Virus record (IMG/VR): IMGVR_UViG_3300042359_000621
Length of the DNA: 64,000 nt
Direction: 5' to 3' (one strand)
Source of the DNA: a virus
The position numbers and the translations under genes were made by a program. This document shows, piece by piece, positions 1 through 27,359 of the stretch; positions within the stretch are counted from its first letter, which is position 1; each line of letters opens with the position of its first letter. Under the pieces are notes generated by a model that was given only the letters and a program-made list of their open reading frames with translations, had not been told where the DNA came from and did no database searches.

Positions 1-327
1 TCGGATATTATTCAAATCGGCACATCCGCATTGGATCGTACGGTGTTAGAGCATTTCTTAAAAGTCAACCCCAATATCAAAGAAGTCGGCGTTGTGTCCG
101 AGATGGCTCCTGACTATTTAGAGTCGATTGGTTTAGCTCCCACCCGATTTATTCAGGCTTTCCGTCGAGATCCCAAAAAAGTCTCTGCTAAGATTTATCA
201 ACCGTTAAAGTGGACTGATACTCGTCCCATTGGTGTTGATTCTTTCTGGCGTGGTGCCAAGTTTAAGTTTGGGGGAATTGATCTCAAACGCCCATTCTCC
301 ATGCACGTTGTAGTATTACCTGAATAA
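1..327 (+). CDS. 3' end of a virion structural gene (possibly capsid-related), truncated by the window edge
   Basis: The frame is open from base 1 to the stop at 325-327. It heads a tightly packed co-directional late-gene block. No motif recognised. Confidence 0.4.
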   Translation, partial: SDIIQIGTSALDRTVLEHFLKVNPNIKEVGVVSEMAPDYLESIGLAPTRFIQAFRRDPKKVSAKIYQPLKWTDTRPIGVDSFWRGAKFKFGGIDLKRPFSMHVVVLPE

Positions 328-329
328 AA

Positions 330-809
330 ATGTCTAAAACTATCATCTTTGACCCCAAACTAAATCCTCACAATCCACGCATTCCCTATGGAATATCAGT
401 GGAGGCTATCACTTCGCCGATTCGTTTTTCCCGTCCCATTAATCGTGGGGGAACCAAGAAAACTTCCTTAGATGCGGTAGAAACACGGGGGAGTTGGATT
501 CTTCCTGGGACTAATTTAGAACTTCCCGACGAGGACTATGAGTATATTATTCGGCATCCTCTCGGATTACAACTTATTAATTGCGGAGCATTCAGAATCA
601 TCTCTCCCACACTAGAGGAAGGGAAGTTTCCCACTGAAACAACCCTTGATTATATTGAAAAAGATGCCCTCGATCTGATTCGCAATTCTAGCGATATTGA
701 TTGGTTAGAACGATCCGAGAAAAGAGAAGGTCGTCCCGCTATTTCTAGGGCAATAGCAGAGCAAATCAAGAATATCAAGTCAGTCAATACTATGAACATC
801 CGGGGGTAG
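330..809 (+). CDS. hypothetical phage late protein
   Basis: ATG lies 3 nt after the upstream stop, in a co-directional gene train. No motif recognised. Confidence 0.5.
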   Translation: MSKTIIFDPKLNPHNPRIPYGISVEAITSPIRFSRPINRGGTKKTSLDAVETRGSWILPGTNLELPDEDYEYIIRHPLGLQLINCGAFRIISPTLEEGKFPTETTLDYIEKDALDLIRNSSDIDWLERSEKREGRPAISRAIAEQIKNIKSVNTMNIRG

Positions 810-812
810 TAA

Positions 813-1148
813 ATGGTTCTCCCTTCCGATTTTTTAGCGGTTTATCCTCAGTTCGCTGTGGTCGAATCTTCTGTGATTCAATACAGTTTAAACTTTGCCG
901 AGAATAATTACTGCGCTGGTTGGGCAGATCCCAAGAGAACGGATGGAATTATGTTGATTGCTGCCCATCGAATCAGCGTTGATTGGTTCCAGCAGGCGGA
1001 TATTGCCTCTAGTGTTACGGGAATCGCATCGGGGTCAGGGAGTTCCACCCCTTCTGGCTCCGAGAATGATTGGTCTTTAACGACTTACGGGAGGCAATAT
1101 ATCCACCTCCGCAATACTATCTTCACTCCCCCTATTCTGGTTTTATGA
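813..1148 (+). CDS. hypothetical phage late protein (size and position fit a head-tail adaptor)
   Basis: Tight spacing, and its stop overlaps the next start (ATGA at 1145-1148). The functional call is positional only. Confidence 0.4.
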   Translation: MVLPSDFLAVYPQFAVVESSVIQYSLNFAENNYCAGWADPKRTDGIMLIAAHRISVDWFQQADIASSVTGIASGSGSSTPSGSENDWSLTTYGRQYIHLRNTIFTPPILVL

Positions 1149-1321
1149 AAGTACAATTCCCTGATTTCTCAGTTGATAATGGTCGAGTTACTTCTGCCGG
1201 GATAGTGACTCCTGCTTCCCCAGAATTGCAAGCTATGGCAGCGATTTACGTGGTGTTACAAGAAATTAACGAGAAGCTAGATAAGTCAGACCACGTTCAC
1301 GCTCCTAAAGAGAAGAAATGA
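1145..1321 (+). CDS. small hypothetical protein
   Basis: An internal ATG of track ORF 1070..1321 forms an ATGA overlap with the upstream stop. Confidence 0.35.
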   Translation: MKVQFPDFSVDNGRVTSAGIVTPASPELQAMAAIYVVLQEINEKLDKSDHVHAPKEKK

Positions 1322-1737
1322 GTCAATCTTTCGTTGAGCAAATGACAGCCCTAAGAGACCGGATCTCTCCCCTTGCGGGGGGATTTGGCAATCCCAACAT
1401 TCAAAACCTCGTCGTTCGCACAAGAGTGGGCAATGGGTACGAATATTTGGAGATTACCCCAACTCCGGTTATCCAAAAACAATTCCCAAGCAAGGATGGG
1501 ATTGAAAATCTAGGCTCAGTGGAGGGAATAACTAGATCCTATTCAGTTAAAGGGATTTCACGGCGTTATTTAGAGGTGCAATTGAAAGGGGAAGGGGTTG
1601 ACTATCTAGTCGGAGCCGATACTACTTATTACCCTCCTGATGGCGTTGTTTGTAACTTAGTCTCACTAACAGAAAATGTTGTGACGTGGGACATGGAGTT
1701 AGTTGAGAAGATTAGCTCACAAGGTTTCTACTTGTGA
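1318..1737 (+). CDS. hypothetical phage late protein
   Basis: 4-nt overlap with the upstream gene, in the co-directional train. Confidence 0.5.
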   Translation: MSQSFVEQMTALRDRISPLAGGFGNPNIQNLVVRTRVGNGYEYLEITPTPVIQKQFPSKDGIENLGSVEGITRSYSVKGISRRYLEVQLKGEGVDYLVGADTTYYPPDGVVCNLVSLTENVVTWDMELVEKISSQGFYL

Positions 1738-1774
1738 TTAACTCACAAGGTTTCTATTTATAAAAGGTAAAATC

Positions 1775-3232
1775 ATGCTGAAATCAAAACCAAGTTCTTT
1801 GTATCGGGTTGACGAAGATGAAGTAGCAGTGGGAAGTGGTGGGGGAGGAACTGCACCAACCGAAGCCCAAATGAAGCTATTTATTGCCCAAACTTTGTCA
1901 ATGAACTTCGCCTATAACGCCCCAGTTGTTGTGCTTAAATTTGATGTTGCCGAGAATGGGAATATTACCGGATTATTTAAAGATGCGGCACGTCCACGGA
2001 TGTTTTCCTTTACCTTAGACGGGGAGTCCGTAACTTATAAGCCTTACAAACCTGGTAAAATGGACAGCTTGGAGTCAGATGAGGATGTCCAAGAATGGGA
2101 GGCATTTTCAGAAGGGTACGGGTTCCGCGTTGATGCGGGAGTAGGGGGCAAAAAAAAGCCTCAATGTGTTAAGCCCACCGCTTACAATTGTGGGAGTGCC
2201 TGTATTAATGTGATGAAGGACTGTAAGACTAACGCCAAAGATGCAGTTTCTAAGGATAGGCTTAAAAAGCTGAAAGGTGTGGCGATGTCTTATTACAAGG
2301 AATTTGAGAAACTTGATAAGACAGAAAGAGGCAGTGACAAACAGAAGGGATTTGGCGACAAAGCAAATCAAGCTAGTCGGAAAAGACTTGAATTGATGGA
2401 GCAATCCAAAAGCAAAAAGGGGGTAAAGTCGGACGAACCCCAGATCAAGCCCAAGGCAGAAAGTAAAAAGCCTTCTAGTCAAAAATCATCAACACAGAAA
2501 ACGGTAGAACCCGAAGTTAAAACCAAGCCAAACGTAGAACCTAAAAAGACGGAATCCAAGCCAAAGTCCAAAGCCAATCCCTTTTATAGTGACGAACCAA
2601 TTAAGGATTATGAGACTTTCAAGAAGGAAATCCCTAAAGAATTAGCCAGGCTTGATTTTGAATACAATCATGGAGGGGTGATTCCTATATCGCAAGTGAG
2701 AGAGGATTTAAAAGGGCGAGTTAATGAAAAGGATTTTGATGAATGGATGAAGCAGTCAATGTATGATGACGATAAAGATACTATTCGACTGATATCAAGT
2801 AACCCAGAAAATAGACCAGATCCAAAAGGGATAAAATCTCCTATGGGAGGAGTGTACGATCACATTTCTTTTAGAGATGAAGAGGCAGCGAAAAAAGCAA
2901 AAACAGAAATAAAGCGGAAGCCGGGTCAAATTACGGATCAAAAAGAGTTTGAAAAAATAGCTAATGAGGCATTTGATAAAATCAGCAAGGCAAAGGGAGG
3001 GGAAGATCTTATAGAGATATACAAAATTCGCCAGGAATTAGGGGATAAAGTGAGTCGAGGTGATTTCAATAACCTATTTAAAAAGATGACAGAATGGGGA
3101 GGGGATTTTCAGGCTGTTGGAGGATCTTTGTCTACCCTAGCAGAAAACGATATAGGTATTAAAGATTCTATTCCCGATGAACTGAATGGGCATGGAACAG
3201 TTAAAACTTATGTAAAACGGTCGAAAGAGTAA
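1775..3232 (+). CDS. modular virion-associated protein, paralog 1 (shared N-domain + 4-Cys motif + Lys-rich linker + unknown C-terminal domain)
   Basis: The N-terminal ~130 aa (AQMKLFIAQTLS..FAYNAPV..RPRMFSF..YKPY) is shared with ORFs 3315 and 8145. It carries the motif KKPQCVKPTAYNCGSACINVMKDCK. Confidence 0.6.
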   Translation: MLKSKPSSLYRVDEDEVAVGSGGGGTAPTEAQMKLFIAQTLSMNFAYNAPVVVLKFDVAENGNITGLFKDAARPRMFSFTLDGESVTYKPYKPGKMDSLESDEDVQEWEAFSEGYGFRVDAGVGGKKKPQCVKPTAYNCGSACINVMKDCKTNAKDAVSKDRLKKLKGVAMSYYKEFEKLDKTERGSDKQKGFGDKANQASRKRLELMEQSKSKKGVKSDEPQIKPKAESKKPSSQKSSTQKTVEPEVKTKPNVEPKKTESKPKSKANPFYSDEPIKDYETFKKEIPKELARLDFEYNHGGVIPISQVREDLKGRVNEKDFDEWMKQSMYDDDKDTIRLISSNPENRPDPKGIKSPMGGVYDHISFRDEEAAKKAKTEIKRKPGQITDQKEFEKIANEAFDKISKAKGGEDLIEIYKIRQELGDKVSRGDFNNLFKKMTEWGGDFQAVGGSLSTLAENDIGIKDSIPDELNGHGTVKTYVKRSKE

Positions 3233-3314
3233 CGTATGAAAAACCTCAATGCCAAAAATCCATCTCCTACAATTCTGGCAAGACCTGTATCAATGAGTCT
3301 AAAGCAAAAGGAAC

Positions 3315-4721
3315 ATGAGTATAGAGACTAAATCATCACCAACAAAAGCACAAATGCAAGCAGCGATCGCCCAGACTCTTGCTCTTCCTTTTGCCTATAA
3401 CTCCCCAGTGGATGTGATGGACTTTAAGGTAGATGGCACGGGTAAAATATCAGGGCGATTCAAGGATTCTGCCCGTCCGAGGGTGTTTGATTTTGAGTTA
3501 GATGGAAATACCGTCAACTTCAAACCTTACGCCCCAGGACGCATGGATTCGGGCGATGCAGTGGAACAATGGGAGGAGTTCTCTAGTGGCTACTCCTATC
3601 GGGTAGATGCGGGGATAGGAGGTAATAAGAAGCCACAGTGCGTGAAGCCAACAGCTTACAATTGTGGGAAAGCCTGTATTAACATCATGAAAAGCTGCAA
3701 GATTAAAACTGATGATCCCACAATAAAAGATAGGCTTAAAAAGCTAGAGGGAATTGGGAAAAATTATGCAAAAACGACTAAATCAACTAAACCCCAAAAG
3801 ACATCAGAATCAGTTAAAATAGCTAAAGTAGATCCCATAATTGAGGTAGAAAAGCCAACAGAAAAACCAGTAGAAAAACCAGTAGAAAAACAGGCTCAAG
3901 AAAAAACAAAACCCCTTTCTAATGCACAAATAAATGCCCAAACAATAGAAAAACTAGCAAAAAAAGCGGGAGTTGATATTTCTGAATTAGAAGAAACTGC
4001 AAAAAAAGCAGGGGCAACTGAAGCTCAATTATTGACATTAAAAAATGCTGTTGCTAAATATCAAAAAACCAAGGGTATAGTGTCTGGAAGTCAGATTAAA
4101 ACTACAAGGTCAGAAGAAGAAGGTTTGACAGGAGACGGGTCACACGAAGGGATGCCCAGAAATGCCCAGGAGTATTATAATCTTGCTACTAAAAACGGGA
4201 AGCAAATAACATTAAAAGAAGCTCAAGATACTGTTGAGGCTATTGAAGACTGGGCGGGAAGTGGGTACGAAGAAATAAGAAAAGATCAAAAAGCAGGACA
4301 ACTTAATGAACGGGCGACACTTATTGACAACTATATTAAAAATTTAACCCCATACAAAGGGGAAGTTTACAGAGGGATAACTTTTGACAACAAAAAAGAG
4401 ATGGATGATTGGTTAAAGGGTGACAAGGATGGATTGTTAGACAATCAAAACGCCCACGCATCCTGGAGTTCTGAACTTGAAGTTGCTAAAGATTTTGCAT
4501 CAGTAGAAGATGATCTAGATAGAGTGGGTGTTGTAATTAAGTCGGTCAATAACAAGTCAGGTGTGTCTATTTCCAATCTAAGTGATTTTGGGAAGACGGA
4601 ATCCGAGGTTATTGTTCCAAAGGATGCTAAACACAAAGTTAAAAGCGTTAGAGAAGAAGGGGGTGTTGTGTATGTAGAAGTAGAGGAAGTTGACCCCCCC
4701 CCTAATAGAAAAACCCGCTAA
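3315..4721 (+). CDS. modular protein, paralog 2, with a C-terminal mono-ADP-ribosyltransferase-like domain
   Basis: It has the shared N-domain and the Cys motif. The C-terminus carries an R-S-E triad pattern: GEVYRG, HASWSS and TESEVIVP. Confidence 0.7.
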   Translation: MSIETKSSPTKAQMQAAIAQTLALPFAYNSPVDVMDFKVDGTGKISGRFKDSARPRVFDFELDGNTVNFKPYAPGRMDSGDAVEQWEEFSSGYSYRVDAGIGGNKKPQCVKPTAYNCGKACINIMKSCKIKTDDPTIKDRLKKLEGIGKNYAKTTKSTKPQKTSESVKIAKVDPIIEVEKPTEKPVEKPVEKQAQEKTKPLSNAQINAQTIEKLAKKAGVDISELEETAKKAGATEAQLLTLKNAVAKYQKTKGIVSGSQIKTTRSEEEGLTGDGSHEGMPRNAQEYYNLATKNGKQITLKEAQDTVEAIEDWAGSGYEEIRKDQKAGQLNERATLIDNYIKNLTPYKGEVYRGITFDNKKEMDDWLKGDKDGLLDNQNAHASWSSELEVAKDFASVEDDLDRVGVVIKSVNNKSGVSISNLSDFGKTESEVIVPKDAKHKVKSVREEGGVVYVEVEEVDPPPNRKTR

Positions 4722-5385
4722 ACAGGAAGAAGTTAAAGCACAGCAACAACCTCCAGGGCAAAAAGTTGGCAAGTTAACACTTTCTGTTCCGTCTGCGGAG
4801 GAGATCCTGGAAACAGTAGAAGAATGGGTTGATGAAGGAAAGAAATATAATACTTTTGCAAAGAAGGTATTAAAAGCGTACCCGAACGATGAAATCATAG
4901 AATATGGCAAGAACAAGAATAAAATTGAGCGGAAGTTACTTGAGAAAAAAATAGGCTTAGTTAGTGACGCAAGAGCCGTAGCTTTTGGGCTAGGAATTTC
5001 CACAGAAGAAATAGAGCCAGGATTACAAGATGCGTTTTTCTTAAAAGATGAATCTGGGAAAACTCAGGGATTCTTCCTTACAGGAAATGATAAATCCAAA
5101 GAATCTATGTATATAGAATTCTTGGGCACTAATCCGACAAATATAATGAAAAACACAAAAGGAGTAGGGAAGCAAATCATTTACCATGCTATTCAAGAGA
5201 GTATAAAAAGAGGTTTTAAAGGAAAAATAAAACTAGAAGCACTCCCCTCTGCGGAATCTTTTTATGAATCGGTTGGGTTTAAAAAACACATAGTTGATAA
5301 TACTCAGTTTGAAGACGCATATTTTGATTTATCAGAAGAATCAGCCAAGGCATTTGTTGAGGAATATGAGAAAAGACTAAAATAA
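4690..5385 (+). CDS. GNAT-family N-acetyltransferase domain protein, possibly expressed as a frameshift fusion with 3315..4721
   Basis: It has TKGVGKQIIYHAIQESIKRG plus FYESVGFK (GNAT motif A-like). There is no nearby ATG (the track start is TTG). It begins inside a C9 run. The homologous domain is fused in frame in ORF 8145..9500. Confidence 0.6.
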   Translation: MTPPLIEKPAKQEEVKAQQQPPGQKVGKLTLSVPSAEEILETVEEWVDEGKKYNTFAKKVLKAYPNDEIIEYGKNKNKIERKLLEKKIGLVSDARAVAFGLGISTEEIEPGLQDAFFLKDESGKTQGFFLTGNDKSKESMYIEFLGTNPTNIMKNTKGVGKQIIYHAIQESIKRGFKGKIKLEALPSAESFYESVGFKKHIVDNTQFEDAYFDLSEESAKAFVEEYEKRLK

Positions 5386-5418
5386 GATAAAATATAGGCA
5401 CTATTTAAGGACAAAAGC

Positions 5419-5610
5419 ATGAATAACAAACCTCAAACAGATGAAGAAATCCTGGTCGATATGGATGAAATTGATAACCTTGAACTTGAATACGGGATCT
5501 CTGCTGCCCCATCTCGTAAACTCAAGGCGTTGAAAGGCAAGTTAAATACGGAAGACATAATTAAAGATAAAACTTCTGGGGTGTCTCAAAGAAAAATCAA
5601 TACAAAGTAA
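5419..5610 (+). CDS. small acidic protein (paralog of 9549..9722)
   Basis: A conserved duplicate copy follows the second GNAT domain. AAGGA lies upstream of the ATG. Confidence 0.5.
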   Translation: MNNKPQTDEEILVDMDEIDNLELEYGISAAPSRKLKALKGKLNTEDIIKDKTSGVSQRKINTK

Positions 5611-5639
5611 ACCAACAAACCTATTTGTGATGTTCTGAA

Positions 5640-6725
5640 ATGAAGAAGCCCCAGTGCGAAAAGCCAACATCTTACAATTGCGGAAATGCCTGTATCAATG
5701 TCTCAAAAAAATGCGGTCAGTCTCCATCTGATTCGTTTGGGCGACAAAGGCTACAAAAGTTAAGGGAGTTGGCGGTTTTTTACTCAAAAAGCAAGTCCAA
5801 AAAATTAGAGAAAAGTAAAGAATCAACCAACAAACTGATTACTACTATTGAAAGTAAAAGGAGTAAAGAAGCCAAAGAATTAAATCAAGATAGGAAGGTG
5901 ATTAATGAAGATCGTCGTAGGGCAAGGTTAAAAGTAGAAGCAAAAGCCAAGAGAGAGCAGTTATTAAAATTATCTGAAGAATTTGAAGGTAAGTCTAAAA
6001 CAAAAGGAGCCACTGCGAATGTAATAACAGAATCATTTCCTAATGCCAAGCTCTGGGAGATACATAATGGTTACAAACAACAGATTAGTAAAGTTGCCAA
6101 AAGCAATCCATTGAGTGCAAAAGAAATGACTCTAAAAGCGAACAAGAAGCTTGAAGTCATAAAAAAAGAAAGTACCGATTTTTTAACTCAATCCAGGAAA
6201 TTAATAGAGGTAGACTCCCCAACCAAAATTAACGCTTCAATAAGCTCCCCCTCACACAAGGAAGGAGTTGAAGCATTTTCTCGAATGGTTTCTATTCCCA
6301 ATCTAAAAGACTCAATCAATATCGTTGATGCCCCTCCAGGAGCCCAAGGGCGGAGTTATTACGGCTTGGGGAGCAATAACGTATATATGGGTGTTGAGTC
6401 TCCTAGTACAGTGGTTCATGAGATGAGTCACTGGCTAGAAGAAAAAGTTCCAAGTATTAGGCAGGAGGTTGTGGACTTTTATAAAAAACGAACCGACGGA
6501 GAAGACTTGGTTAAACTTCGAGATGTTACAGGGAACCCTGCTTACGGAGAAGAAGAGGAGACGAGGACAGATAAATGGCTGCATCCCTATATGGGCAAAG
6601 AGTATGAAAATGCGTCTGAAATTCTGTCAATGGGGATGGAATTAATGTACGAAAACCCTGCATATCTAGCCAAGAATGACCCCGAAATGTTCGACTTTAT
6701 TTATAGTGTTGTGAGGAGAGGATGA
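5640..6725 (+). CDS. 4-Cys-motif protein with a C-terminal HExxH metallopeptidase-like domain
   Basis: It starts directly with MKKPQCEKPTSYNCGNACINVSKKC. It has VVHEMSHWLEE (HExxH). The C-terminus is paralogous to ORF 6722. Confidence 0.65.
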   Translation: MKKPQCEKPTSYNCGNACINVSKKCGQSPSDSFGRQRLQKLRELAVFYSKSKSKKLEKSKESTNKLITTIESKRSKEAKELNQDRKVINEDRRRARLKVEAKAKREQLLKLSEEFEGKSKTKGATANVITESFPNAKLWEIHNGYKQQISKVAKSNPLSAKEMTLKANKKLEVIKKESTDFLTQSRKLIEVDSPTKINASISSPSHKEGVEAFSRMVSIPNLKDSINIVDAPPGAQGRSYYGLGSNNVYMGVESPSTVVHEMSHWLEEKVPSIRQEVVDFYKKRTDGEDLVKLRDVTGNPAYGEEEETRTDKWLHPYMGKEYENASEILSMGMELMYENPAYLAKNDPEMFDFIYSVVRRG

Positions 6726-7861
6726 TTAAATACAGAGAAGACAAGAGGGAAAAGAAAGCTCAATGCGTGAAGACTACTTCCTATAATTGCGGTCTATCTT
6801 GCATTAATGTTAAGAAAAATTGCAGGATAGTCCCGAATGATTCAAGGTCAAAAGATAGGCTTGAAAAGCTGAAAACGATGGGGATTGATTACGCTAAAAT
6901 TAGACCCTCAAAGTCTAAAGTTAAGCCGACACCAACCCCTATTCCGGTCATTCCCGCGCCAGTGATATCCGCGCCAGTCGTAATGCCAGAACCCGAAGTT
7001 AAAGAGACTCCAGAGCAAAGGAAAGCGAGGTTACAAATAGAATCAAGAGTTGTTCGGCAACGACTCGTGGGGATGTATGATGATCTTGAGCATGAAGAGA
7101 AAAGAAATCCAATCAAAGCCAATCAAAATGCCATAATAGCAATTAACGAAGAAAACCCCAAAAAGTTTTTAACTAGCAGGATAAAATTCTCCAATTCAAG
7201 AGCGAAGGATTATATTAAAACAAATCCAGAAAAAGCTCAGACATATGTGGATGCTGCCAAAATCGACCTAGAACCTGCACTAGCTAAAGTTAACGATCTT
7301 TTGGGTGAAGCCAGAAAATTAGTTGAAGTAAAGAATCCGTCATCATTTAATATAAAACAAAAAGGGGATAATATAATCTTTTACAAACACTTGTTAGATA
7401 AAGGAATTGACGCTTTTCAGAGGTTGGTCGATGTACCGAAATTGAGAAGTCCTGTCTCCATCGTAGTAACAGAACCATTGGGAAGCAGAAGCTCTTATTC
7501 TGACGCTGCAAAGAAAATCACACTAGGAACTGATGACCCGTCTGCCATTGTCCATGAGTTAGCGCATTGGTTGGATTTGTCTGACAATGGGGTCAAAAAA
7601 GAAGTTTTAGAATTTTACAATAAAAGAACGGAGGGAGAAAAAACGGTAAAGTTAAATGATGTTAGCAAAAACCCATACAGTAATGATGAAGTAACTAAAG
7701 TTGATAAGTGGTTAAATCTTTATATGGGAAAAGTTTATCCTGACAAGTCAACGGAAATCCTCTCAATGGGTTTAGAATTAATGTACAAGAACCCAGTATA
7801 TCTAGCAAAAAAAGACCCAGAAATGTTTGACTTTATTTACTCAGTAGTTAGGAGAGGTTAA
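6722..7861 (+). CDS. 4-Cys-motif protein with a C-terminal HExxH metallopeptidase-like domain (paralog)
   Basis: It has KKAQCVKTTSYNCGLSCINVKKNC, IVHELAHWLD, and a C-terminal tail almost identical to the other paralog (EILSMG.ELMY.NP.YLAK.DPEMFDFIYSVVRRG). Confidence 0.65.
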   Translation: MIKYREDKREKKAQCVKTTSYNCGLSCINVKKNCRIVPNDSRSKDRLEKLKTMGIDYAKIRPSKSKVKPTPTPIPVIPAPVISAPVVMPEPEVKETPEQRKARLQIESRVVRQRLVGMYDDLEHEEKRNPIKANQNAIIAINEENPKKFLTSRIKFSNSRAKDYIKTNPEKAQTYVDAAKIDLEPALAKVNDLLGEARKLVEVKNPSSFNIKQKGDNIIFYKHLLDKGIDAFQRLVDVPKLRSPVSIVVTEPLGSRSSYSDAAKKITLGTDDPSAIVHELAHWLDLSDNGVKKEVLEFYNKRTEGEKTVKLNDVSKNPYSNDEVTKVDKWLNLYMGKVYPDKSTEILSMGLELMYKNPVYLAKKDPEMFDFIYSVVRRG

Positions 7862-7862
7862 C

Positions 7863-8138
7863 ATGGCTTATCGCGTTAAAATCAATGGTGTAGTGGCAAT
7901 TGTTGAGAATGGCGTTTGGTCATCCTCAACACCCCATTATGCCGAAATTCTAAATAACGTCTTGGCAATGGAGAAATTGGCAGCCATAGACCCTGATTCG
8001 CCTTTTTTCTGGCTTAATTCCCCTGCAACACCCGACCCCGATTGGTTGATTGCAACCGAGATAGCAAAAACCTTTGAGGGGACGGTAATGGATCAACCGA
8101 TTACTCCTCCGGCAACAGACGAAGACATTGTTTATTAA
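7863..8138 (+). CDS. hypothetical protein
   Basis: ATG lies 2 nt after the upstream stop. No motif recognised. Confidence 0.45.
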   Translation: MAYRVKINGVVAIVENGVWSSSTPHYAEILNNVLAMEKLAAIDPDSPFFWLNSPATPDPDWLIATEIAKTFEGTVMDQPITPPATDEDIVY

Positions 8139-8144
8139 CCTGCG

Positions 8145-9500
8145 ATGAAGTTCAATCCAAATGCTACGGTTTCCGAGGCTCAAATGAAGTTAGCGATCGC
8201 TCAAACGTTATCGCTCCCATTTGCCTATAATTCTCCCGTGATGGTGTTGGATTTTGATTTAGGGGATAGTAACGGCGACAAAATAACAGGGCGGTTTAAG
8301 GACGCTTTCCGACCCCGCGTGTTTAGTTTTGAGATAACCAGGAAGTCAGTTGTCTATAAACCCTTCGTGGCTCGAACTGATAGCACGGGTTTGAATGTTG
8401 AGGTATGGGAAGATTTCTCGTCGGGTTATTCCTACCGATCAGGTTATTCCTACCGTGTTGATGCAGGGGGAGCAAGAAGGGAGAAAGCCCGGTGCGTAAA
8501 GCCTACGTCCTACAATTGTGGGAGTGTTTGCATCAATATCAAGAAAAGTTGCAGAGCTAATGCTGACGATGACTTTTCGGAGGAACGGATTGATAAGTTG
8601 CTCAAGTTAAAAAAACTGTATTTAGATGAACTGTACAAAATACAGCATGAGGAGCAAAAAGAAAGAGAATCTTATCTTCTTAAAGAAAATAAGGAGGTTA
8701 CTCTTGCGCTCATGGGTGCAAGAGAAAGGCAAAGAGAGCCAGAGAAACAAAAAGAGCTAGAGAAACAAAGACAGCTAGAAAAACAAAAAGAGCTGGAGAA
8801 ACAAAAAGAACTAGAGAAACAAAAACAGCTAGAAAAACAGCTAGAAAAACAAAAACAGCAGCAATCCCCTGGGCAAAGAGTCGGAAAATTAATGCCTTTT
8901 ATTGCATCCGTGAAAGAGATAGAGAAAACGGCAGAAGAATGGATTGATAAATCTAGTAAGTACGTTGCTACTGCGGGGGAAGCATTGAAGCAGTCCCCGT
9001 ACGGTAAAATTATAAAGTATGGCAATAAGGAGGTGATTGAGCGAGATGTTCTGGAGAAAAAAAGAGATTTAGTTGATGACTCAAATGCTGTGGCGGCGGG
9101 TCTAGCTTGGGCAGTAGAACTAGAGCCAGGATTACAAGATGCGTTTTTTTTAAAGGATGAATCAGGGAAATCTCAGGGGTTTTTCCTTACAGGAAACGAT
9201 AAATCTAAAGAATCTATGTATATAGAATATTTAGGTACTAATCCATCGAATATAATAACTAATACAAAAGGAGTGGGGAAGCAAATTATGTACCACGCTA
9301 TTCAAGAGAGTATAAAAAGAGGGTTTAATGGGAAGATAAAGCTAGAGGCGTTAGCATCTGCGGAACCTTTTTATGAGTCAGTTGGGTTTAAGAAACGCAT
9401 TGAAAAAAGTGCTAAATATGGATATGAACTTGAGTATTTTCATCTGTCGGAAAAATCAGCTAAGGCATTTGTCAAGGAATATGAGAAAAAACTAAAATAG
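8145..9500 (+). CDS. modular protein, paralog 3 (N-domain + 4-Cys motif + EKQ coiled-coil repeat + GNAT domain)
   Basis: It has the shared N-domain and EKARCVKPTSYNCGSVCINIKKSC. An 18-bp tandem (ELEKQK)n repeat lies at about 8741-8860. The C-terminal GNAT is about 85-90 percent identical in DNA to 5008-5385. Confidence 0.7.
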   Translation: MKFNPNATVSEAQMKLAIAQTLSLPFAYNSPVMVLDFDLGDSNGDKITGRFKDAFRPRVFSFEITRKSVVYKPFVARTDSTGLNVEVWEDFSSGYSYRSGYSYRVDAGGARREKARCVKPTSYNCGSVCINIKKSCRANADDDFSEERIDKLLKLKKLYLDELYKIQHEEQKERESYLLKENKEVTLALMGARERQREPEKQKELEKQRQLEKQKELEKQKELEKQKQLEKQLEKQKQQQSPGQRVGKLMPFIASVKEIEKTAEEWIDKSSKYVATAGEALKQSPYGKIIKYGNKEVIERDVLEKKRDLVDDSNAVAAGLAWAVELEPGLQDAFFLKDESGKSQGFFLTGNDKSKESMYIEYLGTNPSNIITNTKGVGKQIMYHAIQESIKRGFNGKIKLEALASAEPFYESVGFKKRIEKSAKYGYELEYFHLSEKSAKAFVKEYEKKLK

Positions 9501-9548
9501 GACAAAATATAATAGGATAAAATATAACTATCGTTTAAGGGTAAAAGC

Positions 9549-9722
9549 ATGAATAACGAACCTCAAACAGATGATGAAATCCTGGTCGATATGGATGAAA
9601 TCGACAGACTCGAACTTGAATACGGGATCTCTGCTGCCCCGTCTCGTAAGGTCAAAAGGGAAGACAAGCCTAAGTATAAACCCACTGGAGTGGCATCTCA
9701 AAGGAAGATCAATACAAAGTAA
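9549..9722 (+). CDS. small acidic protein (57 aa, paralog of 5419..5610; not in the ORF track)
   Basis: My own translation MNNEPQTDDEILVDMDEIDRLELEYGISAAPSRK.. matches ORF 5419..5610. The frame is intact from the ATG at 9549 to the TAA at 9720-9722. Confidence 0.45.
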   Translation: MNNEPQTDDEILVDMDEIDRLELEYGISAAPSRKVKREDKPKYKPTGVASQRKINTK

Positions 9723-9835
9723 ACAAATTAGCCCAAGAGGAAAGTCTCGAAAACGAAGGGAAAAGCCCAACGTATTAAGGTGTCAATAAACCAGTTTTTT
9801 GATAGAATAATTAAGAAAATATAGGATTAAAATGT

Positions 9836-10426
9836 ATGACTTCTATTGTATTGGACGATATTGAGTATCCTTTGGAAAAGCCTATTGATTTCCTTCTGAA
9901 TTGGGCAATGGAGGCATCGGCAGACGAGTTCAAGAGCAAGGAATCATTAGATAAAATATCAAAGGTTGTTAAGGCTGTTTGTCCTGCTATTCCTAACGAC
10001 TACTTCTTTACGGTTGACCCGCAGTGTACGATCCCTTTGATTGACAGCTATCAAATAATTGACTTTGTAGCTAAATTAATGGTTTGTGTTATTGAGCGAC
10101 GGATTAAGGTTATTGAGTCAATCCCAGAAGAAGACAGGGTATCTTTAAAAGTTGATATTGATCAAAAGGTGGCATTATTCCGTCAAGTTGTTGACCGCAT
10201 CAGCAAGCAATTCTCTGACCTGAAGTTTAGTCTAATTTTGGGAGGGATTCAGATAACCAATAACGACAAACCACCATCCCCTGTGTCACAAGAAGATCCG
10301 AAACTTGTGGCATTGAATCGGCAGATGTGGACAGGGGTGTCCCCACAGACAGATTCAAAAATCATGGAACTGAAACGACAGATGGAGGATCTAAGTTCTG
10401 AGATTGCTCTACTAGAAAAGGTTTAA
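9836..10426 (+). CDS. hypothetical protein
   Basis: ORF in the late block. No motif recognised. Confidence 0.45.
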   Translation: MTSIVLDDIEYPLEKPIDFLLNWAMEASADEFKSKESLDKISKVVKAVCPAIPNDYFFTVDPQCTIPLIDSYQIIDFVAKLMVCVIERRIKVIESIPEEDRVSLKVDIDQKVALFRQVVDRISKQFSDLKFSLILGGIQITNNDKPPSPVSQEDPKLVALNRQMWTGVSPQTDSKIMELKRQMEDLSSEIALLEKV

Positions 10427-10427
10427 T

Positions 10428-10625
10428 TCAGTCCCCGTATCGATCCTGGTACTCCTCAATCCCCATTTCTAGGAGCATCAAGAAAAAATAAGTCATCTCC
10501 AAAGAGTCAGAAGCGTCGTGCTTGCTGGCTTTTTCTTTTTGGGCGATCGCTTCTACCTTCTTATATAGGGGCATGGGAACACGGATGGACATTTTACGTT
10601 TTTCGATTCCGTCTGAAACTGGCAT
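10428..10625 (-). CDS. possible ribbon-helix-helix DNA-binding protein
   Basis: SIRVPMPLYKKVEAIAQKEK resembles an RHH N-terminal strand-helix. It is a lone minus-strand gene facing the promoter at 10670. Confidence 0.4.
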   Translation of the reverse strand: MPVSDGIEKRKMSIRVPMPLYKKVEAIAQKEKASKHDASDSLEMTYFFLMLLEMGIEEYQDRYGD

Positions 10626-10669
10626 TTTATAGGACTCCTAGCGAATTTAAAAATATTTTAGCATACCCC

Positions 10670-10698
10670 TTGACATTTGTAGGACAACCGGCTATTAT
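10670..10698 (+). promoter_or_regulatory. sigma70-like promoter
   Basis: TTGACA (10670-10675), a 17-nt spacer, then TATTAT (10693-10698), upstream of gene 10786. Confidence 0.4.
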
Positions 10699-10785
10699 TG
10701 GAAATGTGGATGGGAAAACACCCGAAACGACACCCGCCACAAAAACCAAAAACGCCACAGTAACAAAAACTCCAGGACTAAAACT

Positions 10786-11403
10786 ATGTTATTTACTCAA
10801 CATACCGACCGCTTGACCGCTTCAATCGTGGGTATTCAATCCCATATCGACGAATTAGAAAACCAACTCAAAGCCCTTCGTGGTGACAAGTCTAGCCTTG
10901 AGTCGGAACTTCAAACAGTCCTAACCTTAGAAGGTGCGGCGGAATCAGCTATCAATCAAGCTCAGTCTTTTGTTGACGCCGCCGATTCTATGGGACGGAC
11001 TGACCTGATCGCCACTTTCTGGCAGGCTATGGACGCTATGCAAAAAGGAGCGATCGCACAACTCCCAGAATCACCGGAACCCGAACCTACCCCCGAACCC
11101 GAACCTACCCCCGAACCACAATCCCCAACCGATGACGTGATCACGGTAGAAGTGACACCGGAACCCGAACCCACCACCCCGACAACGCCAGATCCCATGA
11201 CTGAAACTCAAAACGGTAAAGTCCCTCAGTCGGTAGGGAGTGCGGCTTTTAGCACAAAAGATGCTACCTTGGAAGAACTAAAAGAATATGTCCGAAACTT
11301 TCAATCGGACGATAAGACAAAAGTTCACGGGAAGCTTAGTCAACGAAGTACCTGGGTAATGGCCGCGAAACAACTCTTAAATATCTCAGACTACACGAAA
11401 TAA
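10786..11403 (+). CDS. coiled-coil / Pro-rich (PEPEPT repeat) protein upstream of the tape measure
   Basis: An 18-bp tandem gaacccgaacctaccccc x2 lies at 11077-11112. Its position immediately before the tape-measure gene suggests a tail-assembly role. Confidence 0.5.
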   Translation: MLFTQHTDRLTASIVGIQSHIDELENQLKALRGDKSSLESELQTVLTLEGAAESAINQAQSFVDAADSMGRTDLIATFWQAMDAMQKGAIAQLPESPEPEPTPEPEPTPEPQSPTDDVITVEVTPEPEPTTPTTPDPMTETQNGKVPQSVGSAAFSTKDATLEELKEYVRNFQSDDKTKVHGKLSQRSTWVMAAKQLLNISDYTK

Positions 11404-11514
11404 GTAAAAATCCCAGACTGTACACCTGGGATTTAATCAAAAAAGACAAGTAGATTCGCGGATCGATAAACCATAACCTCTTGATTTAATACTAACAAAT
11501 CAAGGGGTTTTAGG

Positions 11515-14500
11515 ATGTCAAGTTCAAGTCTTAGCGGAGTCAGTATCACGATCTCGGCAAGTAATCAAGTTTCTCCTGTCCTGAGAGCAATTCAAGGGGA
11601 GTTGCTTGGACTGCGCCAACCCCTTCAGGTGCTTGACTTGTTTCAGAGTTCCTTTGGGGGGATAACGTCATCTATTGTTCAAGCTACGACAACTATCGGC
11701 TTCTTTGGGCAGGGGATGTCAACGCTTCGAGGGTTGGTTTCTAACGGCCCGTTTAAATTGTTGATTGGGCAAACAGTCGAACTACATGGGCAGTTGCTAT
11801 CGGTCGCCTCAACGATGGCAGCAACTTCAAAAATCATTAGTAACGGGTTTGAGATTAAAGACCCTACACAAGCAATCCTGGCTCTCAACCAACCTATAAA
11901 CGATCAGATTAGACAGTTAAGGATTGATTCTATTGATCTAGTTGGGGTCACGTCTAAGCAGTTGATTCCCGTGTTTCAACAGGTGGCACAGGGTGCGACA
12001 CCGATTGGAGCAACCCTAAGCGATGCACGGAGTTTAACTATTGACTTTGCAGCAGCTTTGGGGACTTTACAGGTTCCGTTATTTCAAAGTAGGCAAGAAA
12101 TTCAATCAATTTTCCTAGGAACAATTGATATGAATTCTATCCTGGCTAAATCGTTGGGGATAACTAACACGATGGTTGCCAAGTGGAAGGCTCAGGGGAC
12201 TTTGGTGCAGGAATTAACCTCTCGATTGTCTGCATTTAGGGCTGGGAACAAATTAGCCGCCGAGAGTTTTTCTGGGGTAACATCAAACATTCAAGAGATG
12301 TTTGAATTGATAGGACAAAGATCGGGGGAAAAACTATTAGCACCTTTGACTCAATCCCTAAACGAAGTCTATAAGTTTTTACAAACGAACCTTGAGATGT
12401 TGGTGGGTGAATCGGGGAAGGTTACAGATCAGATCCTTCGCGCGGGTCTAGCCTTCCAATCTATTTTTAAAACGGTTCTTGGGGATGTGGTGACGGTCTT
12501 TAAGGATGTTCCATTATTCTTGTTTACCTCTCTAGCGAACGCATTGGAGGCACTGAATCAGGGACTGGGATTCACGATGACGGTATTGCGTCCTGCCCTT
12601 AACCTGTTCGCGGCATTATCAAGTGCGGTAGCTCCCCTCGCTTCTGGTTTCCTTGTGATTGCCCTTCAGGTAAAAGCCCTCACTGTTGGAGTAGGAATAC
12701 TTTCTAAGGCTTTTGGGATATTAGGCGGCATTCTGTTACCCGGTGTCGGGCAAATCTTCCCCCTCCTTGTTGCTAACGCAGGCGCTTTAGGCGCTGCTTT
12801 TACAGGGCTTGGGGGAGCAACTATCTTCAGTTCTGTAGGCATGGCTCAATTCTCTGCCAACCTTCAGCAAATACCCGGCGCAATGACGTTAATGGCTTCT
12901 GCTACGGCAGCGTTAGGGAATCTTCTCAGGACAGTTGGCTTGGCGGTTGTCGCATTTGGTGCGTTCAAAATAATTGATGAATTTATCCTCAAAAACAGGG
13001 GGTTAATGGAAGTCCTTGGGGGTGTATTTGGGGGGTTGGGTGAAGTTGTCAATATTTTAATCGGGTCTTGGCAGTCAGCCTTGATCACTTCGACTGTTGT
13101 TGTCGGGGGGTTAGCGATCGCATTCCGCGCTCAATTAATCCCTGCGGTTTTGTCGTTTATCTCAATTCAATTAGCTGGTGTTGTAACCAGTTCTGCATCT
13201 GCATTTGTGTTTCTTGCCGGAGTATTGACTTCTCTTGGATTTAGCAGTATGGCTATCACGGCCGGAACTGCTGCACTTCATTTACAAATGCTGTCTGCGT
13301 CTGCAAGTCTGGGAACATTGACTATGGGAGGGTTGGCTCTTGCTGTTAAAAGTGTAGCCTTATCTGTAGCTACGTTACTCGCTCCTTTAGCTGCTGTGGC
13401 TGCGGTAGTGGGAGGTATTGGACTTGTTCTTTATAGTCAATCCTTAAAGGATTCTACAGAAGCCACACAGGAGTTAGCTAATAGAACTGAAGAATATGGG
13501 GATTTAGCTATTGATTCGCTTGAGAAACTGTCTGTGGCTCAGAAAAAGCAACAGGAGTCAGAGAAATCAGGGATTAGATTGACCGACGAAGAATATAAAA
13601 ACAATCAAAAACTTCAAAATCAAGCCAAACTCAGGATCGGATTAATAGAGGATCAAATAACTGCATTAAAAGAGCAGGAAAAAACAGTTAAGGGTGATGC
13701 CAACAAGTCTAACATTCAATCTCAAATAGGTGAGCTAGAAAAACTAAAAACGGCATTAGCTCAAGCATCTTCTAATGTGGTTATTGCACCAAAAGATTTA
13801 ATGGTATTAGGGACGGCGTTAGAACAGTTAAAGAAAAAAGCAAATGAAGCTATGGACGCAATTCTAAAACCATCTGGAGATCAGGAGGTGTTTAAGAAAA
13901 AGGCATCTGAGGTTATTGAATTTAACATGGCTTTATTGGAAATGGGGCAAACAATTGATAAGGATGTTATTACTAAACTACGTCAGTTAGCTAACGATAC
14001 AAGGTTAGATCAAGAGGTTCAACGCAAGGCACAGGAAACAATTACTAAAGTCATTGAGCAGGAAAGCAAAAAGCGATCCGATACTATTGCAAAACAAAAA
14101 GCAGAGGTAGAATCTCAACAAAAAAACGGGGAGATAGGAGTAAGGAAATCGGAAAAGTTAATAACTGATTTAACTATCAAGGAATTAGAGGAACGGAAAT
14201 CAGCCCAACAAGAAATCCAGTCCGAGCAACGAGCTTTTGGAAACATTGAAGCAGCCCGAAAAGCCGGGGAAGAAATCAAGAAAATAGAATCAGATATTAC
14301 TAAAGCAATTGCAGAGGAACGGTCTAAACGGAACGAGGAACTGGTTAAAAACTTTCAGGAGCAACAGTCAATTATTGAGGGGTATCTCGCCCAAGGATTA
14401 ACCACAGAGAAAAACTACAATAACCAAAAATCACAGTTACAAATCGAGGGATTGGACGAACAAATTAGGCAGCAGCGAAACAAATTAGGAAAATTAGCAG

Positions 14501-16563: not shown

Positions 16564-16769
16564 TAGAGCCAATGGCATTCCCCATGGTGTTGTTTTGCCC
16601 CGTGAGTCTGAAGCTGAATGTGATAGCAAAAAGGGTAAATTTTCAGCGTCTATTCATAATCAGCAACCCTGGGAAAAAGAGTATACATGGACTAAGATCA
16701 AGGGATGGTGGATTGATAATTAATTATGACTATTAAGATTAATTATAGACTGAAAATATATACAATATT

Positions 16770-17953: not shown

Positions 17954-19627
17954 ATGTCTAATTTTAGCGATAATGTGCGAACAAAGGAGTTTAAGCTCAT
18001 TCTATCCTCGGAACAAGAGCGAACCCTAGAAGATTGGATGCTAGTCTGTAAGTGGGTTTGGAATCGTTCACTGGGATTGATAGAGGAATTTAACGAGTGG
18101 AACCCCTACGATAGAATATCAAAGTCTAACGTCCCCGCTACTCCCCTGCAACGATATGATCGCAAGCTCAAGCAATGGGTACGAATTGAGATCCCAGATT
18201 GGAAGATGGGGATTGAACGAGTTGAGAAGAAAAGGGGATTCATCCATCCCGTTGCTATTGATGAGAATAGTCCGGTTATTGACTCACTAGATTCTAAAAA
18301 ATCAGTGCTATACGGATTTCTAAAAATGTTTGGACATCAACACCACAAAGATCGGATCGTGACTTATTTAATTAGAGGTGAGGAACGAAAAGTCAATTTC
18401 ACCGACTGCCCTGCAAAATTTATCCAAGGGGTAGCGCATGAACTCTCGAAGGCTTGGGAGGGATTTCTGGCGGGTCGCCATAGTCGTCCCCGATTCAAAA
18501 CAGCCAAAGATAAGGTGATGACTTTGATCCACTATAACGCCAGGGATCTAGGGGTTAAGGATGGTAAAATTAATATTCCTAAGTTGGGTTATATTGAAGT
18601 AATTGGGCTTGATAAGCGGTGGTATGGTTGCGATTTTAACCCGATGAAAATTTGCAAAAAAGCGTCGGGGTGGTATATACAATTAACTGCGTCCGTCCCT
18701 GTCAAACAAGCCAAGAAGACAGGGTTATGTTGTGGAATTGACCCCGGACATCAGTTTGTTATGGCATTGGATAATGGTCACACTATTGAGGCTGCACAAC
18801 CATTGAAACGTGGGTTAAAACGTTTAAGAAAAATGCAGCAACAATTATCTCGCAAGTATCGAATGAACGGGGGGAAGACTAAGAACTGGGAGAAACTTAA
18901 CAATAAGATTGCTAAACTTCACGAAAAGATCGCCCGTCACCGTCGATCTTTTAACCATTGGCATTCGACTAATTTAATTAATTGGTTTGATGTGATTTTT
19001 GTAGAAGATTATAAACCCGCCAATGTTTACCGAAAAGCTAAAGCTAAGGCAAAACTAGATACAGAGGGGGCTCCAATGGTAGCTGCAAATGGTACGGCTA
19101 TCTATGAGAAGAACAATCAGAAACGCAAGCGGGGAAGTAATAGAACAGGAAATGATGTGGCTATCGGTCAGGCTATTGATCTATTAGAAACCAAGGGAAA
19201 GGAACACGGAAAGTTAGTAATTCGGGTCGATAATTGGGGGACTACTTTATGTTGTGCAAAGTGTGGACACCAAGAGAAGAAAAAACTATCACAACGAACT
19301 CACAAATGCTCTAATTGTGGCTATACTGTGGCTCGTGATGTTAACTCAGGACAGAATATTAAACTGAAAGGTTTGGCTCAAATGGCAATCAATCAAGGTG
19401 TGGAGTTATCCGATAATTTCTGGTATAAATTCTTGATTGATAAAAATTCGGCAACCCCTAGCGGTTCTAAGAAGGCGACCAAGAAAAAGCCTAAAAAGTC
19501 AGACACCGTAATCATTCCAGATGATTTGTTTAAAAATGGGGTTCACGAATTTTTGATCGGTGAAACTGCCAAAACTCGTGCTATAATAAATGAAATGAGC
19601 TTAGGTAATTTCGATAGAAACGCCTGA
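17954..19627 (+). CDS. compact TnpB-like type V CRISPR effector candidate (Cas12-like, 557 aa)
   Basis: TnpB-type layout with an N-terminus KEFKLILSSEQERTLEDWMLVCKWVWNRSL, then RPRFKTAKD and IPKLGYIEV. RuvC-I is GIDPG (D263, 18740-18742). RuvC-II is IFVEDY (E351, 19004-19006). Zn ribbon is CAKCG..CSNCG. RuvC-III is ARDVNSGQNI (D462, 19337-19339). Its stop lies 19 nt before the first CRISPR repeat. Confidence 0.8.
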   Translation: MSNFSDNVRTKEFKLILSSEQERTLEDWMLVCKWVWNRSLGLIEEFNEWNPYDRISKSNVPATPLQRYDRKLKQWVRIEIPDWKMGIERVEKKRGFIHPVAIDENSPVIDSLDSKKSVLYGFLKMFGHQHHKDRIVTYLIRGEERKVNFTDCPAKFIQGVAHELSKAWEGFLAGRHSRPRFKTAKDKVMTLIHYNARDLGVKDGKINIPKLGYIEVIGLDKRWYGCDFNPMKICKKASGWYIQLTASVPVKQAKKTGLCCGIDPGHQFVMALDNGHTIEAAQPLKRGLKRLRKMQQQLSRKYRMNGGKTKNWEKLNNKIAKLHEKIARHRRSFNHWHSTNLINWFDVIFVEDYKPANVYRKAKAKAKLDTEGAPMVAANGTAIYEKNNQKRKRGSNRTGNDVAIGQAIDLLETKGKEHGKLVIRVDNWGTTLCCAKCGHQEKKKLSQRTHKCSNCGYTVARDVNSGQNIKLKGLAQMAINQGVELSDNFWYKFLIDKNSATPSGSKKATKKKPKKSDTVIIPDDLFKNGVHEFLIGETAKTRAIINEMSLGNFDRNA

Positions 19628-26570: not shown

Positions 26571-26571
26571 T

Positions 26572-27276: not shown

Positions 27277-27297
27277 ACCTATAGGAATTGAACCTAA

Positions 27298-27359
27298 ATT
27301 AATCCGGCGGTTGCCGGATTAATTATCAAAAAGCCTAGGGGTTGAATCCTAGGCTTTTT
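27298..27359 (+). terminator. tandem intrinsic terminators ending the modification operon
   Basis: Hairpin attaatccggc-ggtt-gccggattaat lies at 27298-27323. Hairpin aaaaagcctagg-ggttgaat-cctaggcttttt lies at 27328-27359. Confidence 0.6.

Follow-up and report, generated by a model that had tools for sequence, protein, structure and literature searches.

Introduction

Some phages package effector proteins in the head and inject them into the host, a strategy known from MuF fusions, polyvalent proteins, T4 Alt and the T4 internal proteins, and the Dar system of P1. Effectors of this kind decide how an infection goes in its first minutes, when the host is taken over and restriction and other defences are evaded. 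To our knowledge, few of the signals that load these proteins are understood experimentally, namely the capsid targeting sequence (CTS) of T4, the N-terminus of P1 DarB, and MuF. The T4 CTS is a peptide of about 10 residues, which is removed by the prohead protease gp21. We know of no injected effector that has been characterised in phages of bloom-forming cyanobacteria. Here we analyse a cassette of modular proteins with a four-cysteine (Cys4) unit in common, encoded at positions 1775–9500 of a 64,000-nucleotide stretch of the viral record IMGVR_UViG_3300042359_000621 (the window). On the most economical reading the cassette proteins are cargo of the capsid interior, with a shared carrier that would be functionally equivalent to MuF. 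Their packaging and their injection into the host are inferred for this phage.

Polyvalent proteins contain between two and 15 conflict-related domains per polypeptide (PMC5512222). P1 DdrB is a head protein, 59.5% of which was covered when the virion proteome of P1 was analysed (PMC9024508). The C-terminal region of DdrB is a metallopeptidase and has been proposed to process DdrB for packaging (PMC5512222).

A shared carrier module

The motif K-x-x-C-x-K-x-T-x-Y-N-C-G-x-x-C-I-N-x-x-K-x-C is invariant in the products of five open reading frames (ORFs 1775, 3315, 5640, 6722 and 8145; alignment A1), in all of which it is followed by D..R..KL...Y. A six-frame regular expression scan of the 64 kb finds exactly five copies, at nucleotides 2165, 3639, 5655, 6764 and 8493, all of them in the cassette, where a mean of 0.05 copies is expected by chance (100 shuffles). 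The cysteine spacing is C-x7-C-x3-C-x6-C and not C-x8-C-x3-C-x7-C, as given in an earlier, purely sequence-based description of the window (the original prediction). That description also held the motif to be conserved at the DNA level. The five copies do align, but column identity is only 66% and the differences are concentrated at third codon positions, which argues for selective constraint on the protein and not for recent gene conversion.

ORFs 1775, 3315 and 8145 share an N-terminal stretch of approximately 100–130 residues, and the common domain that had been proposed for them is recovered by the module hidden Markov model (HMM) with E-values of 1e-67 to 1e-80. ORFs 5640 and 6722 had been described as starting directly at the motif. 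They are indeed short forms that begin at or just before the unit, but ORF5640 starts five residues earlier and ORF6722 retains an upstream remnant (YREDK). The conserved unit exceeds the four cysteines, comprising an upstream G-Y-x-Y-R-x-D-A, a basic stretch, the cysteine motif itself and a downstream helix (D..SK.RL.KL). Copies internal to larger proteins define it as R-phi-D-A, two to four basic residues, C-x5-8-C-G-x2-C-I-x5-6-C-R and [K/R]-x-R-L-x-x-L. The four cysteines are retained in nearly all members of the family, and pairs are lost in only two divergent members.

The N-domain and the cysteine motif belong to no named family, in agreement with the original prediction. Searches of the module against Pfam (at E<=0.1 and E<=5), NCBIfam, PADLOC and PDB sequences (phmmer and profile) returned nothing or noise only, and in PHROGs the sole matches are two clusters, phrog_16619 ('minor head protein') and phrog_33618. 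The AlphaFold2 model of the module has a predicted local distance difference test (pLDDT) score of 64.6 overall and 50–60 in the cysteine region. It comprises a helix and a four-stranded sheet (residues 10–72), a disordered stretch (76–108), small hairpins over the cysteines and a long helix (135–157). A Foldseek search of the PDB with this model found no fold match (best E 0.14), so the HMM and structure searches proposed earlier as a check placed neither the N-domain nor the motif in a family or fold. Both the carrier module and the Cys4 unit at its core are new.

An exhaustive profile search collected 266 representative clusters of the module family at E<=1e-3. Close relatives occur at 46 or more loci in IMG/VR, on phage contigs, and a single-sequence scan of cellular genomes found only two contigs, from metagenome-assembled genomes, that resemble mis-binned phage. 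There are five to eight carrier paralogs per genome. All six of the long contigs examined have their module genes in phage head-gene blocks. These genes follow either the portal, in the usual slot for MuF, or, as in the window, the major capsid protein and E217_gp27. Many clusters have the module, or just the Cys unit, at internal positions, with two to three copies in proteins of 1,200–1,975 aa, and a three-module protein of 1,429 aa in one relative (L010) fills exactly the slot of the cassette. One of these giants (P0146) contains the polyvalent-protein domain LPD1, and others contain LRAT/NlpC-like or alpha/beta-hydrolase domains. The window proteins themselves contain no LPD or PolyVal signature domain detectable with Pfam and have one head each, or two in the ancestral fusion of an ADP-ribosyltransferase (ART) with a GNAT domain. 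The portal of phages related to Planktothrix phage PaV-LD is fused to the inorganic pyrophosphatase domain InPase (PF18823, E 4.8e-26; L005 7101–9008 and L006 1796–3790), which has been described in polyvalent proteins.

Genomic position and virion evidence from a relative

The cassette lies in the head-gene block; the original prediction had placed it between head and tail genes. On its upstream side are the end of the major capsid gene and head-completion genes (phrog_302/E217_gp27-type and a homolog of PaV-LD ORF077R), and on its downstream side is a gene for a 1,682-aa tape-measure-like protein (11515–16563). PaV-LD matches positions 1–12000 of the window with 95% nucleotide identity, over only 58% of the length, and its syntenic cassette is ORF078R to ORF085R.

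Cyanophage CL131 is a siphovirus which has 13 structural-protein homologs in common with PaV-LD (PMC6293099). Directly after the ORF077R homolog of CL131 is gp044, which begins R-I-E-A-R-A-D...K-C-K-K-A-N-Y-Q-C-G-D-A-C-I-P-R-V-K-K-C, a pattern of R-x-E-A...C-x6-C-G-x2-C-I-x5-C. This protein was found in purified virions by LC-MS/MS, with nine peptides and 46% coverage (PMC6293099, SI Table 5). The PaV-LD record labels ORF081R, the ortholog of ORF6722, as a 'virion structural protein' and ORF085R as a 'minor virion protein', both by annotation only. A portal–module fusion in CL131 gp012, which had been suspected from the 1,440-position profile of phrog_16619, was rejected; gp012 comprises a portal and a MuF-like region and contains no module.

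HExxH heads

The cassette contains an HExxH metallopeptidase-like head twice (ORFs 5640 and 6722), and this assignment of the original prediction holds: the heads are zincin-like, with the HExxH and the third-ligand glutamate conserved. The two are 39% identical overall, and H93, E94, H97 and E160 (in T-E-I-L-S-M-G) are invariant in 16 HExxH-head sequences. The AlphaFold2 model of the ORF6722 head has a pLDDT of 92.5. Its top matches in the PDB are all zincins (astacins, Wss1, M1) and are weak, with a best E-value of 0.057 and a Foldseek probability of 0.90. Among viral models (BFVD) it matches phage 'head morphogenesis domain' proteins that are MuF fusions.

Profile alignment (hhalign) of the HExxH heads (A5) with P1 DdrB covers residues 813–970 over 135 columns with a probability of 97.2% and an E-value of 3.5e-11, the HExxH and TE..SM motifs being aligned, and tblastn relates the head to DdrB with an E-value of 8e-3. 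By these sequence comparisons the HExxH heads are homologous to the C-terminal peptidase of DdrB. The same head is found C-terminal to Phage_Mu_F in P0286, P0290 and gp68 of Bacillus phage vB_BboS-125, the gene for the last lying directly after the portal. The scan that readily finds PF04233 (Phage_Mu_F) in these three proteins finds none in the cassette proteins at E<=0.1 and none in 16 module sequences at E<=5. The cassette had been likened to MuF-type packaged effectors, a likeness borne out by the fusion of the HExxH head to Phage_Mu_F elsewhere, the homology to DdrB, the giant proteins in the cassette slot and the CL131 virion protein. Our analysis favours a role of the HExxH heads in processing or assembly, as peptidases of the DdrB kind, over one as toxins directed at the host.

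These links also bear on whether the cassette proteins are packaged at all. They could instead be late or auxiliary host-takeover enzymes, co-expressed with the structural genes and acting in the infected cell in late host shutdown or in the modification of phage proteins, with the module serving as an oligomerisation or regulatory domain. The T4 ARTs ModA and ModB are unpackaged (PMC5512222). Nothing sets the cassette apart from the late operon in a scan for promoter-like and terminator-like sites, which are not enriched relative to shuffled sequences and none of which separates the two. We consider this explanation unlikely given that the HExxH head is carried by MuF and by DdrB, both of them head proteins, that the syntenic CL131 gp044 is found in virions, that LPD1-bearing or multi-module giants occupy the cassette slot, and that relatives have module genes in the MuF slot beside a portal–InPase fusion.

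ADP-ribosyltransferase, GNAT and other heads

The head of ORF3315 was originally described as an ART with an R-S-E signature. Its profile (A6) matches the arginine ADP-ribosyltransferase Vis in the PDB (4XZJ, E 3.5e-16, positions 40–193), followed by Tre1 (6DRE, 6e-7), XopAI (7e-5) and ExoT (0.025), and seven ART-head homologs match PF01129 or PF03496. The catalytic residues are conserved: in 13 diverse homologs R88-G89 (Y-R-G), S118/S121 (S-x-x-S) and E166 (the second E of [E/Q]-x-E) are invariant. Judged on sequence, this head is a genuine R-S-E (C3/VIP2/Vis-like) arginine-type ART. The Pfam models ART-PolyVal and MPTase-PolyVal have no match in the cassette proteins.

The GNAT ORF at 4690 matches PF13673 with an E-value of 1.4e-5 and 25.5 bits, against a cut-off of 23.6. 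The second proposed GNAT head, that of ORF8145, falls just below this cut-off with 23.3 bits but is 68% identical to the first, which passes. In both heads the match is confined to the acetyl-CoA-binding C-terminal half. Isolated phages contain no match to the GNAT head, and seven close matches are all that metagenomes yield.

The ART and GNAT domains are separated by a real +1 frameshift, as had been supposed, and relatives encode a single module–ART–GNAT protein of 675–694 aa (P0002/3/5/6/7). The sequence at the site is GAC-C9-T-AATAG-A5-CC in the window and GAC-C7-AATAG-A4-CC in the fused relatives. The CCT insertion of the window keeps the frame, which is shifted by the additional A of the A5 run (4709–4713); the C9 tract was considered as the lesion and rejected on this comparison. 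The split allele is present in seven independent contigs from several sources and is therefore a real variant, which might still yield some fused ART–GNAT protein. A transcript lacking one C of the C9 homopolymer, which is 6 nt upstream of the A5 run, would also regain the fusion.

The head of ORF1775 was listed as an unrecognised domain and no family was found for it. It has a match only in PaV-LD, contains a weak internal repeat and shows a weak similarity to DnaA_N that is below threshold. The heads had been described as enzymatic and toxin-like. In the ORF1775 head no enzyme is evident, and the HExxH heads are likelier to be the processing or assembly peptidases discussed above. The low-complexity K/E/P linkers that precede the heads are real, with tandem repeats in the DNA at 3846–3891 and 8723–8857.

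Small partner ORFs

Small ORFs accompany some of the heads. The 63-aa ORF (5419–5610) and its 57-aa paralog (9549–9722) each follow a GNAT head, a pairing that is also seen in a metagenomic relative (L012), and the 63-aa ORF has no family match. The 91-aa ORF (7863–8138) has a second copy in L012, which comes after what is left, 46 aa, of an HExxH head. In an SPP1-type lineage (L015/L016) the MuF–HExxH gene is directly followed by a homolog of the 91-aa ORF (L015 5103–5393; BLASTP E 1e-4). A partner of this type follows the HExxH head both on the Cys carrier and on MuF, so cargo and partner move as a unit between two unrelated carriers, and this conservation in sequence suggests that the 91-aa ORF is a conserved peptidase partner. 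No partner ORF is adjacent to the ART heads.

The original prediction compared the architecture with that of polymorphic toxins. A constant N-terminal region, a variable C-terminal part and recombination at the junction are indeed present; conserved small partners come after the GNAT and HExxH heads and move with them, but the ART heads have none. The cassette could accordingly be read as a set of toxin–immunity pairs for inter-bacterial competition, in which the toxins are released with or delivered by particles and the small downstream ORFs are immunity proteins that protect lysogens. MuF polymorphic toxins were reportedly proposed for temperate phages by Jamet et al. in 2017. The joint travel of heads and small partners would fit, as would the resemblance of the ART head to the type VI secretion system effector Tre1. 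This reading is improbable to us: the module is absent from the cellular genomes scanned, bar the two contigs that resemble mis-binned phage, the IMG/VR matches are phage contigs and PaV-LD is known as a lytic isolate. The ART heads lack an adjacent partner, and DdrB, the best characterised relative of the HExxH heads, is an assembly and antirestriction component and not a toxin.

Exchange of heads between related phages

The constant N-terminal module, linker and variable head of the original prediction are seen in the maps of the window, PaV-LD and metagenomic relatives, and the comparison of cassette content that it proposed shows a different head complement in every relative. In the window the set is N-unknown, N-ART/GNAT, c-HExxH (twice) and N-GNAT, N denoting proteins with the N-domain and c the short forms. 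L012 has an additional N-HExxH protein, and PaV-LD has N-ART-ART, a truncated gene with the N-domain only and an extra c-ART.

Identity between the window and PaV-LD is 96–97% at 1–2749 and 9875–16637, and 92% at 6411–8431. Similarity collapses within ORF1775 at the start of the head (about 2749) and within ORF8145 just before the Cys unit (about 8431). ORF1775 is 86–100% identical to ORF078R up to about residue 300, beyond which identity falls to 20–54%, with 28–54% given for the head. These intragenic breaks are sharp and coincide with domain borders. The PaV-LD counterpart of ORF8145 (ORF083R) is cut down to the N-domain alone, and ORF085R has no counterpart in the window. A six-residue tandem duplication, SGYSYR-SGYSYR, stands directly before R-V-D-A in ORF8145 (8430–8470, residues about 95–107), exactly at the breakpoint near 8431.

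This variability is relevant to the possibility that the cassette encodes structural or morphogenetic proteins, the module being a scaffold-like, decoration or tail-assembly domain and the enzymatic heads being incidental or acting on the envelope during entry. The cassette stands in the tail-tube/chaperone slot of siphoviruses, just upstream of the tape-measure-like gene, its PHROG cluster is labelled 'minor head protein', and P1 DdrB and DarA influence head assembly (PMC9024508). Yet phages with 96% identity differ in the number of these genes and in their heads (PaV-LD has a truncated ORF083R, and the window lacks ORF085R), which is not expected of essential structural parts, and the ART and GNAT heads are cytoplasmic-type enzymes that modify proteins or small molecules, with their catalytic residues intact. 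A structural or morphogenetic role is in our view a poor candidate.

PaV-LD encodes a further module protein, ORF065R (770 aa, 'hypothetical'), which has the carrier at its N-terminus (ORF065R and ORF066R lie in L001 353–3246). ORF065R was also considered as a portal and rejected in this role, the product being the 770-aa module-bearing protein. ORF066R ('minor head protein') consists of an ART domain on its own, and together the two resemble a split form of a 779-aa module...ART protein of relatives (P0038).

Organisation of the cassette and its surroundings

All six ORFs of the original prediction are present and are listed with their features in Table 1; the cassette features are all on the plus strand.

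Table 1. Cassette features, numbered from the first nucleotide of the window.
Feature	Position	Strand	Description
ORF1775	1775–3232	+	485 aa; carrier module: N-domain, RVDA 2126–2137, Cys unit 2165–2224
ORF1775 C-terminal part		+	K/P/E linker, then non-enzymatic-looking head 2585–3229, weak internal repeat
ORF3315	3315–4721	+	468 aa; carrier module: RVDA 3600–3611, Cys unit 3639–3698
ORF3315 C-terminal part		+	VEKP-repeat linker, then predicted arginine-type ART head 4110–4703
ORF3315 predicted catalytic residues		+	R in VYRGI 4365–4379; SWSS 4461–4472; ESEV 4599–4610
ART/GNAT frameshift site	4694–4713	+	C9 tract 4694–4702, T-AATAG, A5 run 4709–4713
GNAT head ORF	4690–5385	+	231 aa, +1 frame; in relatives the C-terminal domain of the ORF3315 protein
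Small acidic/basic partner ORF	5419–5610	+	63 aa, after GNAT head
ORF5640	5640–6725	+	361 aa, short form; starts 5 residues before Cys unit 5655–5714
ORF5640 C-terminal part		+	coiled linker, zincin-like HExxH head 6156–6722; HEMSH 6417–6431; SEILSMG 6615–6635
ORF6722	6722–7861	+	379 aa, short form; R-x-D-A remnant REDK 6734–6745, Cys unit 6764–6823
ORF6722 C-terminal part		+	P-rich linker, zincin-like HExxH head 7277–7858; HELAH 7553–7567; TEILSMG 7751–7771
Small partner ORF	7863–8138	+	91 aa, after HExxH head genes
ORF8145	8145–9500	+	451 aa; carrier module: RVDA 8454–8465, Cys unit 8493–8552
ORF8145 C-terminal part		+	QKELEK-repeat linker (tandem repeat 8723–8857), GNAT head about 8895–9497
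Small ORF, paralog of 5419–5610	9549–9722	+	57 aa, after second GNAT head; below ORF-listing threshold

Beyond the cassette, no PHROG matches the 'tape measure' homolog of 1,682 aa at E<=1e-3, and the protein may be a tape measure or an ejection protein; PaV-LD is described as tail-less or podovirus-like. Shortly 3' of it is a gene for a 557-aa transposase (17954–19627; phrog_506, E 1e-66), a mobile-element insertion in the phage genome. At positions 23590–29086 ParB-like genes and genes for DNA methyltransferases (phrog_620, 116 and 498) are clustered, one of them encoding a 532-aa ParB–methyltransferase fusion, together with a tRNA methyltransferase-like gene.

A proposed route for the cargo

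On the preferred reading of the cassette as capsid-internal cargo, the core carrier would be a unit of about 60–70 aa (R-x-D-A, a basic stretch, C-x7-C-G-x2-C-I-x5-C and an amphipathic helix), optionally preceded by an alpha/beta N-domain of about 75 aa. It would steer the protein into the assembling capsid, near to the portal or the DNA, and a flexible, repeat-prone linker would join it to an exchangeable C-terminal head. At infection the cargo would exit with the genome and the heads would act in the host cytoplasm, the arginine-specific ART and the GNAT acetyltransferases as T4 Alt does, together with the non-enzymatic head. The two HExxH proteins would most likely be DdrB-like processing or assembly peptidases for the cargo set. 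The small ORFs that accompany the GNAT and HExxH heads probably encode inhibitors or chaperones cognate to them, which would quiet the enzymes in the producing cell. Heads and partners are swapped by recombination at domain borders, and other phages string the same units into one giant polyvalent protein.

The recurrence of the Cys unit between the domains of giant proteins, together with short forms that start at or just before it, suggests that the unit may also mark processing boundaries. More tentatively, and with rather less confidence than we place in the cargo reading itself, the R-x-D-A/basic/C-x5-8-C-G-x2-C-I-x5-6-C/helix unit could be an undescribed autonomous tag for capsid loading and ejection. 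It may be a zinc knuckle that binds the portal or packaged DNA, or else a lock sensitive to redox state, opening once in the reducing cytoplasm, and as such a tag it would also mark the boundaries at which giant polyvalent proteins are processed.

Several points weigh against the cargo reading. CL131 gp044 has a different head and shares only the short core unit with the cassette proteins (HMM E 1.6e-6 within that locus). The model of the module, of moderate quality and without a fold match, would be compatible with binding to metal, DNA or the portal. The Pfam scores of the GNAT heads are marginal, and in one relative (L017) the small ORF after the MuF–HExxH gene has no detectable homology to the 91-aa partner. 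Siphovirus gene order normally places tail-tube and chaperone genes in the slot occupied by the cassette, which leaves room for a tail-associated location. The three alternatives nevertheless agree less well with the links to MuF and DdrB, with the CL131 proteome and with individual genes being dispensable.

Should the tag suffice for loading, any protein bearing its approximately 60 residues could be carried into cyanobacteria by phage, and it would be a tool for protein delivery into Planktothrix and related cyanobacteria.

Comparison with known systems

The module family would be a fourth, sequence-defined carrier, unrelated to the T4 CTS, the P1 DarB N-terminus and MuF. Like the cassette proteins, MuF fusions (SPP1 gp7/Mu gpF) are encoded among the head genes and join a variable C-terminal enzyme, by way of a linker, to a constant N-terminal domain that incorporates the protein into the head, as is proposed for the cassette. 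MuF of other phages carries the HExxH head together with the partner ORF, and module genes of relatives occupy MuF's post-portal slot. The carriers differ, that of the cassette being a Cys4 unit unrelated to MuF, to which an alpha/beta domain may or may not be joined, and the five to eight paralogs per genome compare with a single MuF gene.

The polyvalent proteins (Iyer et al. 2017) have a similar repertoire of ART, metallopeptidase, ParB-like, GNAT, NlpC/LRAT and hydrolase heads and are likewise predicted to be packaged and injected. Relatives of the cassette encode, in its slot, single proteins of 1,200–1,975 aa that contain the module two to three times and in one case LPD1. The cassette, by contrast, distributes the domains over separate genes, every one of which has a carrier copy to itself. 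No mention of the Cys4 unit, which punctuates the giant proteins, is made in the polyvalent-protein paper, in which 'cysteine' and 'zinc ribbon' return no occurrences (PMC5512222), and the two surveys of the Aravind group contain no mention of PaV-LD, cyanophages or a cysteine element.

The Dar system of P1 shares with the cassette a DdrB-type peptidase, several head-loaded proteins that are thought to be injected against host defences, and a capsid-targeting signal at the N-terminus (PMC9024508; PMC5512222). It differs in that the N-terminus of DdrB is a ddrB-ParB domain and the DarB targeting signal is about 30 residues long with no Cys motif. The Dar heads are a methyltransferase and a helicase, whereas those of the cassette include ART and GNAT domains.

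T4 Alt and the internal proteins include a head-packaged, injected R-S-E ADP-ribosyltransferase and have an N-terminal targeting element common to several cargo proteins, as is proposed here. Unlike the T4 element, that of the cassette is a folded module of 60–160 aa with putative cleavage, and the ART head is closest to the Vis/Tre1 type.

What is new with respect to all of these is the unbundled, multi-paralog arrangement, which grades into giant polyvalent proteins, and the head-plus-partner units held in common with MuF carriers. The five to eight paralogs of each genome are natural swap experiments, and through the shared punctuation unit the single-head genes are linked to the giant polyvalent proteins.

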